From assembly GCA_038890875.1 (NCBI GenBank), contig JAWAFA010000001.1, forward strand, positions 170,996 to 234,995: a stretch of DNA of 64,000 nt, written 5' to 3'. Origin of the DNA: Candidatus Pacearchaeota archaeon (GTDB taxonomy: Archaea; Nanobdellota; Nanobdellia; Pacearchaeales; JAPDKA01). Positions 22,055 through 38,922 of this stretch are shown here, one piece after another. The notes beneath the pieces are model-generated. The model did no database searches and had not been told where the DNA came from. It worked only from the letters and a program-made list of their open reading frames with translations. The translations under genes were made by a program, and so were the position numbers. Numbering within the stretch: position 1 is the first letter of the stretch; each line of letters begins with the position of its first letter.

Positions 22055-22837
22055 ATGCAAAAAGTAAGGCTTGTCTCTGAATTTTTAAAAACAATCAGCC
22101 CAACAATGACAAAAGATGAAATTTGCAAAAGAACACTGACTTTTTTATTTGAAAAGCTAAAACTTAGTTGTAGGCTTAATGATTTAAAGCTTGGTGATGA
22201 AAATGGAAAAAAGGAATTAATTAAGTTTGCTGAAAATTATTTAGTTGTTTATTTAAGGAGAAAAACAAATCTTGAGTTTATTAGAATAATGCTTGAGATT
22301 GCTGAGCGCTATATTGCTTATTCTGAGCTCTTTCAATCATCTAAAAAATTTGCGACAACTGATAGATTAACAGGGCTCTTCAATAAGGCATATTTCATGG
22401 GAATTTTAAAAAACATGAAAGCGCGAAAAGAAAATTTTTGGCTTGCTATGCTCGACCTAGATAATTTTAAAAAATTTAATGATAGCTTTGGCCATCAGCA
22501 AGGCGATATACTATTAAAACAAGTTGGGGAAATAATAAGGACTGAACTTAAGCATGGCGAATTTGCTTGCCGTTATGGTGGAGAGGAATTTTGTATAGTA
22601 TTAAAAAGCAATGCTTATGCTCGAACTGAAGCCTTGAGAAAAAGAATTGCAATAATAAATGGAATTGTTACTGCTTCGATTGGATTAACAAAATCTTCAA
22701 ACGAAAGTTTTTATGAACTAATTAAGAGGGCTGACAAGTTAATGTATAAAGCGAAGAAGAGTGGAAAAAATAAAATTATCTATGATAGGTATGAAGGGAG
22801 TATTCTTTCGAAGCTAATTAATCTCTTCAGTAGTTAA
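22055..22837 (+). CDS. GGDEF-domain protein (diguanylate cyclase-like)
   Basis: TDRLTGLFN, DLDNFKKFNDSFGHQQGD, RYGGEEF, TASIG, ADKLMYKAKKSGKN. Confidence 0.92.
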   Translation: MQKVRLVSEFLKTISPTMTKDEICKRTLTFLFEKLKLSCRLNDLKLGDENGKKELIKFAENYLVVYLRRKTNLEFIRIMLEIAERYIAYSELFQSSKKFATTDRLTGLFNKAYFMGILKNMKARKENFWLAMLDLDNFKKFNDSFGHQQGDILLKQVGEIIRTELKHGEFACRYGGEEFCIVLKSNAYARTEALRKRIAIINGIVTASIGLTKSSNESFYELIKRADKLMYKAKKSGKNKIIYDRYEGSILSKLINLFSS

Positions 22838-23433: not shown

Positions 23434-24249
23434 TTATAGCTCATCTAGAGGATTCTTAATTTTCTTTAACTCTTCTGTACTCACATGTGTATAGATTTGA
23501 GTTGTATTAAGATTTTCGTGGCCAAGGAGAGTTTGGATTAGCCTTATGTCGGTGCCAGCTTCGAGCAAATGAGTAGCATAACTATGCCTTAGTGTATGAG
23601 GGGTTATTTTTTTATTAAGCTGTGCTTTCTTGGCTGCCTGCTGGACTATTTTTTGTATGTTGCGGGTAGTTAATGGTTTTTCCTTAGAAAAGAGGTAAAT
23701 GTTTTCAGGATGTTCTTTAAGGTACTCCCTCAAATCGCTACAAAGCTTTTCTGATAATACAAACATTCTATCCTTTTTTCCTTTTCCCTTTCTAACAATT
23801 CCTGTTTTTTCTTCAAGGTTTATATCTATTTTTTTCAAATTAACAAGCTCTGATACGCGTAAGCCAGTTGAATAAAGAAATTGAATAATAAGCCTTGATT
23901 TTCTAGTCTCCGCATTTTCGATTAATCTTTTAACCTCTTCTCTTGTTAAAACATTTGGTAGTGTCTTTTCTTTTTTTGGCCTTTCAATGCCTGCTGTAAG
24001 GTCCTTACCTAATATTTTTGTGCTTGCAAATTTTATAGCTGCTAATGCAAGAATTGCTGAGCTTGTTGCCTTGTCAGACATTACAGCCAAAAATCGTTTT
24101 ACATCATCCTGTGTTAATGCTTCAGGATCTTTTTTTGCCATTTCTAAAATTTTTGAATTGAAATACTTATAGTTCCTAATTGTTAGTTCTGACTTCTTTG
24201 TTAGCCTTAGTTCTGTTTCAAGCTTTTCAAGGAATTCTTCTTTTTGCAT
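23434..24249 (-). CDS. xerA: Tyrosine recombinase XerA
   Basis: TGLRVSEL, GKGKKDR, HTLRHSYATHLL, LLGH, TTQIYTH (full R-K-H-R-H-Y set). Confidence 0.9.
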   Translation of the reverse strand: MQKEEFLEKLETELRLTKKSELTIRNYKYFNSKILEMAKKDPEALTQDDVKRFLAVMSDKATSSAILALAAIKFASTKILGKDLTAGIERPKKEKTLPNVLTREEVKRLIENAETRKSRLIIQFLYSTGLRVSELVNLKKIDINLEEKTGIVRKGKGKKDRMFVLSEKLCSDLREYLKEHPENIYLFSKEKPLTTRNIQKIVQQAAKKAQLNKKITPHTLRHSYATHLLEAGTDIRLIQTLLGHENLNTTQIYTHVSTEELKKIKNPLDEL

Positions 24250-24295
24250 TTATGAACTAAAACGAACTTATTTATAAATTTTATTGAAATTCATT

Positions 24296-24323
24296 GGTTC
24301 GCTTAATGCATCTTGTGCGAAAT
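24296..24323. other. dif-like Xer recombination site
   Basis: GGTTCGCTTAA-TGCATC-TTGTGCGAAAT: 11-6-11 imperfect inverted repeat, 21/28 identical to E. coli dif. Confidence 0.75.
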
Positions 24324-24987
24324 TTTCAGGTTTTTTTACAGCTTCTTGCTGGTTGCTGCCTCTTTGCATGCTCGCCGCACATTGCTTGCAAAAACTTTTA
24401 AGCAAGAACTAAAAGTTTTAGCCAATTTTTAGTTTTAGTTTAGAAAGTCTTGAGTCTTGAAGTGCATGCTTTTGGCAAAAAGCGTTTAAAATTTTTGTTA
24501 CTAAATCTTACAAATTTTTACAAATTATTATATTATTATATTTAGGAAGTTTAAGCTGCAAAAAGGAAGAAGGAAAAAGATTGTATTATAGAACATTGTA
24601 AAATTTTAATCAAAAAATTAAAAGTTTAGCGATATGTATCTAATTTGAAATTATATAACTAGCGCTTGATGCTATTTTATTTTTTGTCGAATTTCTGCAT
24701 ATAGATTAATATTGCCCTATTATAGAAATAATCTCTATGAAGGTAACATTTTTCTTACACATGCTTATGCCTCTCCAGCAATTTTTGCTATTCTTGCCGC
24801 TTTCTCTTTTCATTTTTTTGAAAGTACTATTGAATTACATCATCAATTATCATATACTCTTAGCCAAGAATAACCAAGTTCTCTAGCTTTTTCTGCTGCA
24901 GCTTTTGCTGCAGCTTCGAACTCATATATAAGTCCAGTTTTTCTATGCCAATTTAAATATTTTTATTTTTGTTTATAATTGTAAAGA

Positions 24988-25011
24988 TATCTAAACACCT
25001 GTTTAAACAGC
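24988..25011. promoter_or_regulatory. Two TGTTTAAACA-type boxes just upstream of the TATA of 25045..25686
   Basis: TATCTAAACA-CC-TGTTTAAACA-GC, same unit and 12-bp spacing as the intragenic array; TATA at 25016. Confidence 0.6.
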
Positions 25012-25044
25012 AAGATTTATAAACAAAAGCAATCTTTGATTTTT

Positions 25045-25686
25045 ATGCTGTTTGGTTTCTTTAGAAAAAGAAAAATTGAGAATGAAATTGAACGTTTGAA
25101 GAGCATTATGAAAGATTCTTTTTTAAATGTAAAAGATGACTTAAATAAAATTTCACACTGGATAAGTTATTTGAATGAAAAAGATAAAGAACTCGACGTA
25201 AAAATTGAAAAAGTAGAAATGAAAATTGATGAAATTAGTAAAGAATTAACTGAGTTGAAAGAATTTTTAGCTCTTTATTCTGGGGTGTTTAAACAGCTGT
25301 TTAAACACCAAACAGGTGTTGAAGGTGTTCAAACACCTGTTCAAACAGGTGTTCAAACAGCTCTAAATAGAAAAAGTTCAAAAAATATCGTGCTACAAAG
25401 TTTAACTTTGATGGAAAGAGCAATCTTGTGGGTATTGTTAAACACTGATATGAAGCTAAGTTGTGAAGACATTGCAAGAGTGCTTGGAAAAAATGAAAAT
25501 ACTGTAAGGGGGCAGTTAAATAATCTTAAAACAAAATGGCCTAGTTTAGTAGGAGAAATAATTGAAAAAAATGGAAAGAAAAGATATTATGTTGAAGAGA
25601 AAACAAAAGAGCTCCTTCTAAAAGAAATAAAAATGAAGGCTAAGACTAATAAAAAGAAAGAAGAGAGAGAAAAAAGTTCATATTAA
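25045..25686 (+). CDS. Coiled-coil / repeat linker / winged-helix protein A
   Basis: N-terminal coiled coil, QTGVQTPVQTGVQT linker, C-terminal LTLMERAILWVLL...LSCEDIARVLGKNENTVRGQLNNL wHTH. Confidence 0.8.
   Translation: MLFGFFRKRKIENEIERLKSIMKDSFLNVKDDLNKISHWISYLNEKDKELDVKIEKVEMKIDEISKELTELKEFLALYSGVFKQLFKHQTGVEGVQTPVQTGVQTALNRKSSKNIVLQSLTLMERAILWVLLNTDMKLSCEDIARVLGKNENTVRGQLNNLKTKWPSLVGEIIEKNGKKRYYVEEKTKELLLKEIKMKAKTNKKKEEREKSSY
25284..25361. repeat. Intragenic array of TGTTYAAACA boxes (12-bp period), including a perfect 26-bp palindrome
   Basis: GGTGTTTAAACAGCTGTTTAAACACC (25284-25309); TGTTCAAACA at 25326, 25338, 25350. Confidence 0.9.
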
Positions 25687-25701
25687 GTGTAAATTCTTGT
25701 T

Positions 25702-25936
25702 AAAAAATTAAAAAGTGAGGGTTAGTTATTAAATGAAGCAAAAAAGACAAAAGAGAGTTAAAAAGGTATTAAAAAGTGTTAAAAGTGCTTAAAAAATAAC
25801 AAAAAATTAAAAAGTGAGAGTTAGCAAACAATAAATTAGCAAAAATAAGAATTAATAAAGGATAAAGCAAGAGCAAAAGTAAAGCAACTAAAGCTAAAAC
25901 GAACTTTTAAAAATAAAAAACATAGAAGTGAGAGTT
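25702..25936 (+). repeat. Intergenic direct repeats AAGTGAGRGTT
   Basis: 24-bp copies at 25702-25725 and 25801-25824 (23/24 identical); 11-bp core again at 25926-25936. Confidence 0.75.
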
Positions 25937-25993
25937 TATCAAAAGAAATTTTAGTAAAAGCTTTTTTTCGGTTAACAGAAAAGGTTAGGAAGT

Positions 25994-26770
25994 TTATGGA
26001 TTAACAAGTCTTTCAAGTGCTTCCAAGCTTGATATTTTTAATATCTCGTTGGGGATCGAAAGAAAAACTTCCTTGCCATGATAAGTTTCTTTTTGGATTG
26101 GAATGCCTTTAATAATGAGTCTATTAACAAGGTCACGTACTGAACTCGGCGCTAAGCCAGTTTTTTCAGCAAGACTTTTATAGCTTATCTTCAATCCGTT
26201 TTGTTGCAGAGAATAAATAAGTGCAAATATCTCGAATTCTTTTTTTGTTAAAGCTTTAAAACGCTTTATTAAGATCTGTTTATAGTTATTGACTATATGT
26301 TCAATTTTTTCAAGCTCACCTTTGTTTTCTTTTTCTTGTTGGAATAGATTTTGAGTTAAGGTTCTTGGTTGGACTTGTTGAGCTGGTTGTATTTGCATGC
26401 CTTGGAATGTTTTTGATGTTTTTGACTGTAAAAAGTTCGTTTTAATGTGACGTAGGATTGACGTAGATGTGTTGGAGATGTGTTGGAGATGTGTTGGAAC
26501 CCCTTTATTTCCTATGGAATTCTTGAAATAAGTCTTATCTCCTTCATTTTTTTCTTTATTTTCCACAGGAAAAAAGGGTGTGTTGGAAATGTGTTGGAAA
26601 TGTGTTGGAACCATTTTCCATTTTTCTTGTATATTTTTTACATCTTCAAGCTCTTTTTTTATAACTTCTAAATCTTTCCTTAACGCAAGAAGTTCATTGA
26701 AAATGAAATTAATATCTTGTTTTACAATTGCAAAAGTTCTCCTTATTACTTCTTCATCTTTTTTTTCCAT
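25994..26770 (-). CDS. Coiled-coil / repeat linker / winged-helix protein B (paralog of A)
   Basis: TFAIVKQDINFI resembles SFLNVKDDLNKI of protein A; C-terminal LTKKEFEIF...ISYKSLAEKTGLAPSSVRDLVNRL wHTH. Confidence 0.8.
   Translation of the reverse strand: MEKKDEEVIRRTFAIVKQDINFIFNELLALRKDLEVIKKELEDVKNIQEKWKMVPTHFQHISNTPFFPVENKEKNEGDKTYFKNSIGNKGVPTHLQHISNTSTSILRHIKTNFLQSKTSKTFQGMQIQPAQQVQPRTLTQNLFQQEKENKGELEKIEHIVNNYKQILIKRFKALTKKEFEIFALIYSLQQNGLKISYKSLAEKTGLAPSSVRDLVNRLIIKGIPIQKETYHGKEVFLSIPNEILKISSLEALERLVNP
26465..26497 (+). repeat. 3 x 11-bp tandem repeat AGATGTGTTGG (intragenic)
   Basis: Three perfect copies. Confidence 0.95.
26499..26519 (-). promoter_or_regulatory. ORB-like element inside gene B
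   Basis: Minus strand TTCCATAGGAAATAAAGGGGT; shares GAAATAAAGGGGT exactly with the oriC ORB at 37424. Confidence 0.75.
26561..26581 (+). promoter_or_regulatory. Second, inverted ORB-like element inside gene B
   Basis: TTCCACAGGAAAAAAGGGTGT, 17/21 identical to the element at 26499-26519. Confidence 0.65.
26579..26610 (+). repeat. 3 x 11-bp tandem repeat TGTGTTGGAAA (intragenic)
   Basis: Copies at 26579, 26590, 26601. Confidence 0.95.
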
Positions 26771-26800: not shown

Positions 26801-27070
26801 TTACTTTTCATTTCTCTCTTGTAGGCTTTTATAGGCAAGATACGCCTTATCAGATAATGTCCACTTTATTTTTCGCAAGAAGTTTGTATTAACCCTTTTT
26901 ACAAGCCCATCCTTCTCAAGCTCGAAAAGGATTTTTTTAATAAATTCTTCATCACGAGCAAGCTCAGAGGCTATATTAGAAGTAAATAAGACGCTTGGCA
27001 TTTTCTCAAACAACAGTGCAAGAATGCTTTCTTTAATTTTCTTAATCTTGGCTTGGCTTATTGCCGGCAT
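26801..27070 (-). CDS. Small winged-helix protein C
   Basis: ILALLFE...LFTSNIASELARDEEFIKKILFELEKDGLV...WTLS wHTH pattern. Confidence 0.75.
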   Translation of the reverse strand: MPAISQAKIKKIKESILALLFEKMPSVLFTSNIASELARDEEFIKKILFELEKDGLVKRVNTNFLRKIKWTLSDKAYLAYKSLQERNEK

Positions 27071-27127: not shown

Positions 27128-27448
27128 TTAATTATATTTTTTATTCCACCATATTTTCATTGTTTCTTTTTCTATTGAATATTCATTTCTAGCCAGGCCT
27201 TTACTATCATAATATTCATGAAGAAGCTCATGCAAGATGGTAATTTCTTGCTCTTCTTTTGGTAAGCCTTTTTCTATGTATATCTTATTATTTTCATAAT
27301 CAATAAACCCATAAATCGATCTTGCTGAATATTTCTTAAATTCCTTTTTTCTCTTCATTGACACTAATTCTATATCAAATTCTTCTAAAATTTTCATTAA
27401 AAAACTATGATCATTCAAGATTTTTTTCAGCTTCTTACTAAATCTCAT
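27128..27448 (-). CDS. HExxH zincin-like protein (ImmA/IrrE-like)
   Basis: GFIDYENNKIYI...ITILHELLH...E. Confidence 0.65.
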   Translation of the reverse strand: MRFSKKLKKILNDHSFLMKILEEFDIELVSMKRKKEFKKYSARSIYGFIDYENNKIYIEKGLPKEEQEITILHELLHEYYDSKGLARNEYSIEKETMKIWWNKKYN

Positions 27449-37298: not shown

Positions 37299-37423
37299 GA
37301 AATTTTTATTTAAGTTTTATTTATAAAGTTTTCTATGTTTTAATTTAGATTATTTTTTTATTTATTTTTTTATTTTAATTTAATTTTTTTTGATTTAATT
37401 TTATTTTATCACTTAACCATCTT

Positions 37424-37580
37424 ACCCCTTTATTTCAAGTAGAAAGTTTTATAAATAAAAAATTTAACCTGTGGTTTTTCAAAAAATAATTTAAAAGTTT
37501 AATTATACTATTATATATATTTTTTATAACATATTAACGAAAATAAATAATAAAAAACTATCTACTTGAAATCTAAGGGT
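37424..37580. other. Replication origin oriC: inverted ORBs flanking an AT-rich DUE
   Basis: ORB (minus) TTTCTACTTGAAATAAAGGGGT 37424-37445; ORB (plus) TATCTACTTGAAATCTAAGGGT 37559-37580; directly upstream of cdc6. Confidence 0.85.
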
Positions 37581-37728
37581 TTTTCTTATTTCTTTTGGAA
37601 AGAAATACTTCTTCGTATATAATAAAAATAACGACAATAACTAACAATAACCTCCATAAGAAATAGACCTCTCTAACTGTTATATTTAATTTCAACAAAA
37701 TTTAAAAATAAAAGAAAGATTTTTTTTG

Positions 37729-38922
37729 ATGGCATTAAACATAGATAAAATTTTTGATAATGTTATAAGAAAAAGCATTTTTAAAAACAAAGCAGTTTTG
37801 CAATCAGACCACACTCCAGAAATAATTCCTCATCGTGAAAATCAAATAAAACAAGTAGCAAAGATTCTTTCTTGTTCTTTACGACTAGAAAAGCCAAGCA
37901 ATCTTTTTATTTACGGTAAAACTGGGACTGGGAAAACACTTGTTGTAAGGTATGTTATTAATGAAATGTTGAAAAAAACACAAGAACTTAATATTCCTGT
38001 AAAATTAGTTTATACTAACTGTAAATTAAAAAAAATTTCAGATACTGAATACAGAATCCTCGCAGAAATTATTAATTTATTAGGTGGTAAAGTGCCAGCT
38101 ACAGGCCTTCCTACAGATACTATCTATAGAAAATTTGTCGAATTAACAGACGAAAAGCAACAGCTTGTCATAATTGTTCTTGATGAAATTGATGAAGCTG
38201 TAAAAAAAATTGGTGATGCTTTCTTATATAATCTTACTAGATTAAATTCTGAACTAGTAAACTCTCAAATAAGCCTTGTTGGAATAAGTAATGATTTAAC
38301 ATTTATTGACTCACTTGATCCACGAGTTAAATCAAGTTTAAGCGAAGAAGAACTTGTTTTTCCTCCTTATAACGCCTTGCAACTTCAAGATATATTGAAA
38401 GAAAGAGCAAAAAACTCATTTAAAAAGAATGTTGTAAGTCAAGGAGTAATCGAAAAAATTGCAGCTATTGCTGCTAAAGAGCATGGTGATGCAAGACGAG
38501 CTATTGATCTTTTGCGAATAGCTGGTGAACTTGCAGAAAGAGAAGGTAAAGAAAAATTAACTTTAGAATTTGTTAATAAAGCAATTGAAAAAATGGAAAA
38601 AGATAAAATTATTGATCTTGTTGAAACACAGCCAAAACATCACCAACTTATCTTGCTTTCAATAATTGAGTTTAGTGAAAAAACAAAAGAGAAATTTTAT
38701 ACCGGGGATATTTACAATAAGTATGTTGAATTGGCAAGAGAACTTAAACTTGAACCATTAACACAGAGAAGAGTAAGTGATATTGTTGCTGAGCTTGACA
38801 TGCTTGGTCTTATTAATGCCCAAGTAATAAGTAAAGGGAGGTATGGGCGAACAAGAGAAATAAGGATGAATTTACCACAATCATTAATTTCTAAAATTAA
38901 AACAATAATCAACCAAAGCTAA
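37729..38922 (+). CDS. cdc6: Orc1/Cdc6 replication initiator
   Basis: GKTGTGKT, VLDEID, FPPYNALQL, GDARRAIDLL, C-terminal WH GRYGRT. Confidence 0.96.
   Translation: MALNIDKIFDNVIRKSIFKNKAVLQSDHTPEIIPHRENQIKQVAKILSCSLRLEKPSNLFIYGKTGTGKTLVVRYVINEMLKKTQELNIPVKLVYTNCKLKKISDTEYRILAEIINLLGGKVPATGLPTDTIYRKFVELTDEKQQLVIIVLDEIDEAVKKIGDAFLYNLTRLNSELVNSQISLVGISNDLTFIDSLDPRVKSSLSEEELVFPPYNALQLQDILKERAKNSFKKNVVSQGVIEKIAAIAAKEHGDARRAIDLLRIAGELAEREGKEKLTLEFVNKAIEKMEKDKIIDLVETQPKHHQLILLSIIEFSEKTKEKFYTGDIYNKYVELARELKLEPLTQRRVSDIVAELDMLGLINAQVISKGRYGRTREIRMNLPQSLISKIKTIINQS

Follow-up and report, generated by a model that had tools for sequence, protein, structure and literature searches.

The window analysed here is a stretch of 64,000 nucleotides from a Candidatus Pacearchaeota archaeon, corresponding to positions 170996–234995 of contig C1 in a genome of five contigs (611,820 bp, 32% GC) that carries an archaeal rRNA operon. 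Within it, gene A (25045–25686, plus strand) encodes a protein of 213 amino acids from an ATG start that is consistent with its orthologues. The linker-coding DNA of gene A holds an array of short palindromic boxes, TGTTYAAACA (25284–25361), which is followed by the part of the gene that encodes a winged helix-turn-helix (25378–25590, plus strand, residues 112–182), and a pair of similar boxes lies in non-coding DNA close to the promoter (24988–25011). Gene A forms a conserved cluster with genes B and C, both on the minus strand, and orc1 lies 12.1 kb downstream.

Exact boxes were found at 25286, 25298, 25326, 25338 and 25350 inside gene A and at 25000–25009 outside it. In order, the intragenic array comprises two TGTTTAAACA units read as FKQ/FKH, one degenerate unit (25310–25323) and three TGTTCAAACA units read as VQT. 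The first two units lie in a perfect 26-bp palindrome (25284–25309), whose 13-nt arms are 100% complementary and abut without a gap, and Tandem Repeats Finder reported a 12-bp period across 25323–25360. An earlier reading of this DNA, made from the letters alone and called the sequence-only reading below, had described an array with this period and this palindrome, and our analysis confirmed it with five exact units. Supporting this finding, the window contains nine strand matches to the box at six places, compared with 0.89 ± 1.19 expected, and none of 100 shuffles reached nine.

The sequence-only reading had also placed a two-unit copy of the box beside the B recognition element (BRE) and TATA box of gene A. 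The pair is indeed non-coding, and only 6 bp separate its end from TTTATAAA at 25016, but just one of its units is perfect: a unit matching at 8 of 10 positions (24988–24997) is followed by a CC spacer, the perfect TGTTTAAACA (25000–25009) and then GC, in a 12-bp register. The BRE/TATA-like element AAGATTTATAAA (25013–25028, plus strand) agrees with AAAGATTTAWAAA, a conserved sequence that orthologues have about 29 nt ahead of the ATG. A perfect 12-nt inverted repeat brackets the promoter box; its left arm, TTTTGTTTATAA (24967–24978), includes a TGTTT half-box, and its right arm (25017–25028) overlaps the TATA element.

The boxes are nearly confined to gene A. The sequence-only reading depended on the motif being infrequent in the genome, and across all 611,820 bp the 10-mer occurs at just seven places, six of them at the gene A locus. 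The palindromic form TGTTTAAACA was found at three places, all at this locus, and the 17-mer AAACA-SS-TGTTYAAACA at this locus only. When one mismatch was allowed, 150 places were detected genome-wide, yet no other cluster exceeded two. No second box cluster was present in this genome, and no box was found at the start of the Lhr gene. The rarity of the box does not stem from restriction-site avoidance, as GTTTAAAC was observed 18 times where 24 were expected. Four DNA sequencing runs yielded short contigs only, which were identical to the window, with zero variants or indels. Candidate members of a wider regulon, namely box pairs at G017:C2:77172-77303, G027:C31:1361-1381 and G027:C40 at MFKQ-type gene starts, were unconvincing and were set aside.

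To what extent the array could be a by-product of the encoded peptide was addressed by codon usage: 86 xVQT units, taken from orthologues at 30 loci, were compared with the background of the same genes. Gln was encoded by CAA in 86 of 86 units (background 143/244) and Thr by ACA in 84 of 86 (background 139/245). Val was GTT or GTC in 80 of 86 units and never GTA, a codon that accounts for 71 of 325 background valines. The codon before VQT, which may specify Gly, Ala, Pro, Arg or Val, was NNT in 83 of 86 units compared with 490 of 1457 in the background; because this codon varies but ends in T, the variable residue x is encoded where the DNA array has its two-base spacer. GTTCAAACA was retained in genomes spanning 18% to 40% GC. 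Further supporting selection at the DNA level, one box is read in two frames, as TG-TTT-AAA-CA to give FKQ/FKH and as T-GTT-CAA-ACA to give VQT, and the T/C variant of the box shifts jointly in both (rho 0.68, n = 26 related loci, uncorrected for phylogeny). In lineages with GTC in the VQT frame, the other frame often has TCC (Ser, giving SKQ) in place of TTT (Phe), which corresponds to the DNA variant TGTCCAAACA.

An explanation that does without selection on DNA is that a repeated peptide (FKQ...VQTxVQT) and AT-rich codon usage generated the array, that slippage or gene conversion homogenised it, and that the upstream copies are spill-over duplications without function. The peptide motif is highly conserved, these genomes often use the codons GTT, CAA and ACA, and in one locus (L005) the upstream stretch resembles a ~38-nt copy of its own coding segment, all of which fit this explanation. 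However, among families with 40–50% protein identity, synonymous codons vary far less than in the background, the box also occurs in a second frame (and in three frames in the clade 2 described below), and the spacer codon keeps its third base T although the amino acid varies. Upstream arrays, moreover, are enriched 17- to 59-fold, lie at many positions and have a 10-bp spacing of their own, and the upstream copy in this window is no direct copy of any intragenic stretch because the spacers differ. The by-product explanation is thus largely refuted, and we consider it very improbable. With synonymous sites near-fixed, two frames in use and non-coding copies present, the claim of the sequence-only reading that the motif is more than a by-product of a QTGV peptide repeat was substantiated. 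Collectively, the array in gene A is very probably a selected DNA element, and it constrains protein sequence across an order, a case of natural dual coding.

The enrichment of upstream boxes was measured in orthologous loci. Exact 10-mers numbered 11 in 7.5 kb of DNA within 250 nt upstream (9 of 30 loci), a density of 1.47/kb, compared with two in 79.9 kb of other flanks (0.025/kb). In loci from 56 distinct genomes, the sense half-box S-TGTTT-R occurred at 7.9/kb upstream and at 0.47/kb elsewhere, and 170 of 253 extragenic half-boxes lay within −300 to −1. Spacing differs between the two settings: upstream, 10 bp was commonest (33/105 intervals), which is about one helical turn, whereas in coding sequence 12 bp was commonest (43/121), no interval was 10 bp and most were multiples of 3. 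Arrays adjoin the BRE/TATA in several orthologous loci, as in this window. The sequence-only reading had proposed that homologues with different linker repeats should have matching promoter boxes. The two did co-vary (rho 0.55, n = 22), with agreement in L005, L013 and L047, but L044 and L046 disagreed, so this proposal held in part.

Gene A was present in 57 of 61 relatives as a single copy, and in 28 of 29 high-quality genomes. An AlphaFold2 model built on a 64-sequence alignment (mean predicted local distance difference test score, pLDDT, 78.9) divides the protein into a long helix (residues 2–86), a linker (~80–112), the winged helix (112–182) and a C-terminal helix (185–212). Residues 80–112 have pLDDT below 50 and are predicted to be disordered, and residues 121–190 exceed 90. 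Despite the predicted disorder, linker residues K87, Q89, T90, V92, V95–T97 and V99–Q104 are invariant or nearly so; few parts of the protein are better conserved within the order than the linker repeat (QTGV/VQT), which the sequence-only reading took to vary among homologues. The recognition helix (~151–164) contains the invariant residues T153, R155, G156, Q157 and N159.

The family of protein A carries no name in the databases searched. A protein search returned 920 homologues at E ≤ 0.001. Querying Pfam gave 16 weak families, none of which reached its cut-off, and neither MarR (PF01047/PF12802) nor ParB was among them; all helix-turn-helix (HTH) matches were below cut-off, for example HrcA_DNA-bdg at 18.9 against a cut-off of 21. 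NCBIfam yielded nothing useful, and the ESM Atlas returned only unnamed HTH clusters of Nanobdellota. A profile search of the PDB gave coiled-coil noise and one Lrs14-like regulator, 6cmv (E 0.0024, residues 99–194). Consistently, Foldseek matched the C-terminal domain to MepR, ZitR, MarR and SlyA (E 1.6e-4 to 3e-3) and to AbfR2, with 10 matches at E ≤ 0.001. Protein A thus represents an unnamed family, in which, by the model, a disordered linker joins a coiled coil to a winged helix of the MarR/Lrs14 type. Our literature searches turned up no paper that deals with the family or with intragenic arrays in DPANN archaea.

Box clusters follow the gene in other genomes as well. In five other genomes the only clusters were at the A gene, and scattered matches stayed at control level. 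A GTDB-wide scan for two adjacent units covered at least 122 loci among the matches listed, of which 94 were inside an A-like open reading frame (ORF) and one was upstream of such an ORF; the other 27 listed loci, including bacteria and Aenigmatarchaeota, had no A-like ORF within the ≤1.4 kb examined. Two-unit matches in viral contigs numbered 11, and no A-like ORF was seen in the DNA around any of them. Four Aenigmatarchaeota loci (L128, L152, L163 and L179) have two adjacent TGTTTAAACA units at MFKHMFKH gene starts or after a TATA-like box; with no A-like ORF in the DNA examined, these pairs may reflect chance or a separate phenomenon.

The type of box changes together with the predicted DNA-contacting helix of A. 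In clade 1, the recognition helix reads STIRGQxNNIK, and TGTYCAAACA boxes were found in 11 of 11 loci from other orders as well as in the order of this genome; ten of these 11 loci have 3–6 copies of a TGTCCAAA-type 8-mer, and the remaining one (L253) has two TGTCCAAACA units in its linker. Its sister, clade 2, comprises 10 loci (L234–L242 and L244) that represent five families of another order. Here the helix reads TVRRHxND, and the gene contains a different box, CGTTCA[AT], one form of which is the palindrome GTTCATGAAC. This box had 74 matches in coding sequence, none in the upstream 300 nt and two in other flanks. In the clade-2 arrays, CGTTCAAT/GTTCATGAAC units repeat every 8–10 nt, and all three frames are used (VQS, FNR, RSI and FMN). 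The joint switch of box type and recognition helix is suggestive of self-binding by A.

The position of gene A relative to orc1/cdc6 is conserved. In this window, orc1 (37726–38922, plus strand) is the sole full match in the genome and is directly followed by the gene for the PolD small subunit. Coordinate comparison showed that in all 42 genomes with A and orc1 on one contig, orc1 lies 2.3–16.1 kb downstream on the same strand, while the intervening genes and the distance vary; in the remaining genomes the two are on different contigs (13) or orc1 was not found (2). The arrangement recurs in three of five genomes from other orders, one of them from clade 2, and the other two have just a sub-threshold Orc-like gene 69–77 kb away. 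The AT-rich region upstream of orc1 (37299–37725) contains an inverted pair of elements resembling the origin recognition box (ORB), of the CTACTTGAAATAAAGGGG type, at ~37425 and ~37568. This region is probably a replication origin and lies 11.6 kb past the stop codon of gene A. Cumulative GC skew on C1 was noisy and did not locate an origin; it was lowest at 140 kb and highest at 335 kb, neither at the gene A locus.

Gene B (25994–26770, minus strand) is the conserved convergent neighbour of A and has the same architecture, although BLAST detected no homology between the two proteins. Its coding DNA also contains repeated elements. The ORB-like element TTCCATAGGAAATAAAGGGGTTCC (26496–26519, minus strand) has the TTCC...GAA dyad core of the mini-ORB, after which a G-run is usual, and follows the pattern TTCCA-NN-GGAAAT-NNN-GGGGTTCC, which is near-invariant (51 of 56 loci) and keeps its leading T whatever the preceding amino acid. 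Of the two occurrences of GAAATNAAGGGG in this genome, one is in gene B and the other precedes orc1. Gene B also has two arrays of perfect 11-bp tandem repeats, at 26465–26498 and 26579–26610 (minus strand), the first being TCCAACACATC ×3; since a period of 11 bp is not a multiple of 3, its 33 nt are read in three frames (VPTHLQHISNT). Across loci, the ~11-bp tandem repeats after the element are lineage-specific and likewise read in three frames.

The elements in gene B raise an alternative, in which the boxes are docking sites for another factor (Orc1/Cdc6, B or C) in an extended origin-region architecture and gene A is merely a host with a tolerant linker. Gene B with its ORB-like TTCCA-NN-GGAAAT-NNN-GGGG lies only 0.3–0.5 kb away, the same type of element precedes orc1 in 10 of 15 genomes and in this window, the linkage of gene A to orc1 is conserved, and the gene B repeats of some lineages include the CAAACAG half-box seen in A. 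There is also a precedent, as a study on Pyrococcus describes ORB/mini-ORB clusters in the dp1 coding sequence that are bound by Cdc6/Orc1 (PMC1904270). However, A boxes were missing from all 15 orc1-upstream regions examined and from that of this window, and they do not match the ORB-like element. In addition, a separate motif in the linker of each paralogue, and a box type that tracks the recognition helix of A, would be unexpected for a shared third-party binder. We therefore regard this alternative as unlikely.

Our preferred interpretation, towards which we lean on sequence grounds, is that the TGTTYAAACA units form a docking array, probably for A itself, which would serve as an origin-proximal nucleoprotein landmark and have autoregulation as a consequence. 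The units, with a core CAAACA flanked by S-TGT, would constitute a protein-docking array within the DNA that encodes the disordered linker. The likeliest binder is A, acting as a coiled-coil oligomer with MarR/Lrs14-like winged helices, several molecules of which would coat the intragenic array, and the promoter-proximal sites too in lineages with upstream boxes. Because the upstream pair abuts the BRE/TATA and the TATA element itself contains a half-box, occupancy here should repress transcription of gene A, by promoter block, an intragenic roadblock or both. Given that the intragenic array is universal and that the gene is kept upstream of orc1, the A–array complex itself could be the functional product, a unique origin-proximal landmark, and autoregulation its by-product. 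We infer A as the binder, repression upon binding and any chromosome-level role.

Several observations weigh against the docking of A on its own gene, or narrow it. Two or more upstream half-boxes were found in 24 of 56 loci, which leaves about 32 with fewer; a genome of the same genus (L002) has no promoter boxes, and neither does any of the 10 clade-2 loci. The sequence-only reading had inferred autoregulation at the promoter, and as a conserved core this part did not survive the comparison. As promoter boxes are not universal, the intragenic array is the core feature and promoter occupancy a lineage-specific addition. The switch of helix and box is statistically weak because it is a single evolutionary event between two clades, and, as the orthologues come from related genomes, p-values overstate significance. 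A third-party binder (Orc1, B or C) is conceivable, since the neighbouring gene B carries an ORB-like element. Furthermore, a transcription factor that regulated nothing but itself would serve no obvious purpose, so this account covers only part of what A does.

The last of these counter-observations concerns RNA. The stretch of 101 nt that encodes the linker has a folding energy of −36.2 kcal/mol, compared with −19.6 ± 3.1 kcal/mol for shuffled sequences (z = −5.4; none of 200 shuffles folded this well), as would be expected if the conserved nucleotides acted in the A mRNA as a structure or a protein-binding element for translation or stability. A strong fold, however, follows automatically from tandem palindromes, and the upstream arrays precede the TATA box, outside the mRNA, with a spacing that tracks the 10-bp helical repeat of DNA. 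Pairing is also not conserved: T-to-C changes in the TGTTT half, as in the TGTCCAAACA lineages, are not compensated in the AAACA half, which speaks against selection for a hairpin or cruciform. An RNA role is accordingly a highly improbable explanation of the array.

A broader proposal, which we advance only tentatively and consider doubtful, is that the A–B–C cluster serves as a chromosome-maintenance centre of Pacearchaeota-like DPANN archaea, with genes A and B themselves supplying, in cis, the sites of a centromere or accessory origin close to the replication origin. Under this proposal, A and B would be paralogues that each carry their own array in linker DNA, that of B being the ORB-like element with the 11-bp repeats, and protein A, the N-terminus of which (MGFLWFGKK-type) is amphipathic in appearance, would organise or tether the locus in cells without ParABS. 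If this were true, the DNA sites would dictate the amino acids of the linker, and not the reverse. For chromosome organisation, segregation and replication in ultra-small DPANN archaea, the locus offers a concrete, testable candidate that combines a near-universal single-copy predicted DNA-binding protein, a defined array, linkage to orc1 and an ORB-like neighbour.

The remaining DNA of the locus has further locus-specific features. The convergent A–B intergenic region (25687–25993) contains motifs conserved across the order, and this spacer is unusually long (170–815 nt in 29 loci). AAAGTGAGRGTT occurs twice in this genome, both times in the A–B intergenic region (25712 and 25811), and TAAAACGAACTT three times, at 24258, 25895 and 26433, the last inside the coding sequence of gene B. 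A ATTCGGTTAAACGA-like motif adjoins the gene B stop codon. In a locus of another order (L067, G154:C24), a ~50-nt module made of the ORB-like element and CAACAATCTT repeats is present twice in almost identical form, at about −130 to −50 (non-coding) and +215 to +290 (coding) relative to a distant B-like gene. Gene C (26801–27070, minus strand), the third member of the cluster, encodes a winged-helix protein of 89 amino acids and lies beside B in most loci. It is followed by a small ORF (27128–27448) resembling an M78/ImmA-like metallopeptidase, with weak Pfam matches below cut-off.

On the other side of gene A, about 800 nt (24250–25044) lack a convincing gene, which is unusual for a 612-kb genome, and Rfam matched no family in this region. 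Several orthologous loci (L015, L021 and L026) similarly have 1.1–1.5 kb upstream of A without an ORF of at least 70 amino acids. The divergent neighbour of A is an Xer/integrase-like gene (23434–24249) with the TAAAACGAACTT motif at its start. In many relatives, A is preceded by a gene for a small membrane protein, which here is located elsewhere, at C1:410301; the upstream neighbourhood of A is rearranged in this genome, with the integrase/Xer-like gene adjacent. In another DPANN locus (L155, CAYVFP010000002.1), a perfect A-box pair stands just before an Xer-like recombinase gene, 3.4 kb from the A gene. Farther upstream in the window, a protein with a GGDEF (diguanylate cyclase) domain is encoded at 22055–22837 (E 5.5e-34) in this archaeal genome.

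Among known systems, the sequence-only reading had likened the boxes to parS/centromere-type sites. In Bacillus subtilis, a parS lies inside spo0J. As in ParB–parS systems, the A boxes are short palindromic sites, few per genome, at one origin-proximal locus and in or near the gene of the binder (predicted for A), and the outer arms of parS, TGTT...AAACA, happen to coincide with the A box. The parS consensus TGTTNCACGTGAAACA is a 16-bp site that is mostly origin-proximal in bacterial chromosomes (PMC7022226). A boxes differ in being 10-mers without the CACGTG core, arranged in tandem with a spacing of 10–12 bp and not as single 16-mers. The PF02195 domain (ParB N-terminal/CTPase) had no match in the whole genome, which is 90.66% complete, and none in A. 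A search for a ParA partner found no P-loop ATPase at 19–41 kb of the window, the only CbiA-family match being at C1:120398, 75 kb away. The likeness to parS thus extends to an origin-proximal and near-unique site, but not to the protein.

Arrays of origin-proximal sites in coding DNA are known from Thermococcales, in which the dp1 coding sequence contains an ORB/mini-ORB array that is order-wide and the only such cluster in the genome (PMC1904270). The array in gene A shares these properties: it is origin-proximal, lies within a protein-coding gene, is order-wide and is the sole cluster in its genome. The Pyrococcus mini-ORB TTCCAGTGGAACT has conserved TTCC and GAA (PMC1904270). The two systems differ in the binder, which for dp1 is the initiator and not the product of the host gene, and in the motif, which is unrelated to the A box; A boxes lack the TTCC/GGAA arms, and the ORB-like element here sits in gene B, not in A.

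The predicted C-terminal fold of A is shared with MarR/Lrs14 regulators (MepR, 3eco/4lll; ZitR, 5yhz; AbfR2, 6cmv) at Foldseek E values of 1.6e-4 to 1e-3, and a candidate palindromic site at its own BRE/TATA in this genome would be a second likeness. Unlike them, protein A has a helix of 85 residues and a disordered linker ahead of this domain, and its main array is in the coding sequence. Rep proteins of iteron plasmids are winged-helix initiators that bind tandem iterons and repress their own gene through inverted half-iterons at the rep promoter. The A system resembles these in combining a winged-helix protein, tandem sites at approximately helical spacing, a promoter-proximal inverted copy and a probable origin nearby, but A is a chromosomal single-copy core gene, its units measure 10–12 bp compared with 17–22 bp, and the sites lie within coding sequence. 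The Sso10a/Sul10a proteins of Sulfolobales are architectural proteins in which, as predicted for A, a winged helix is joined to a long coiled-coil helix for dimerisation (PMC4941522). They are abundant chromatin proteins without a unique site array and have no sequence match to A. Their domain order is reversed relative to that of A. By this comparison, the A-box system belongs to none of the parS/ParB, dp1 ORB or iteron/Rep families, and would most resemble a centromere or operator embedded in the gene of its own predicted binder.

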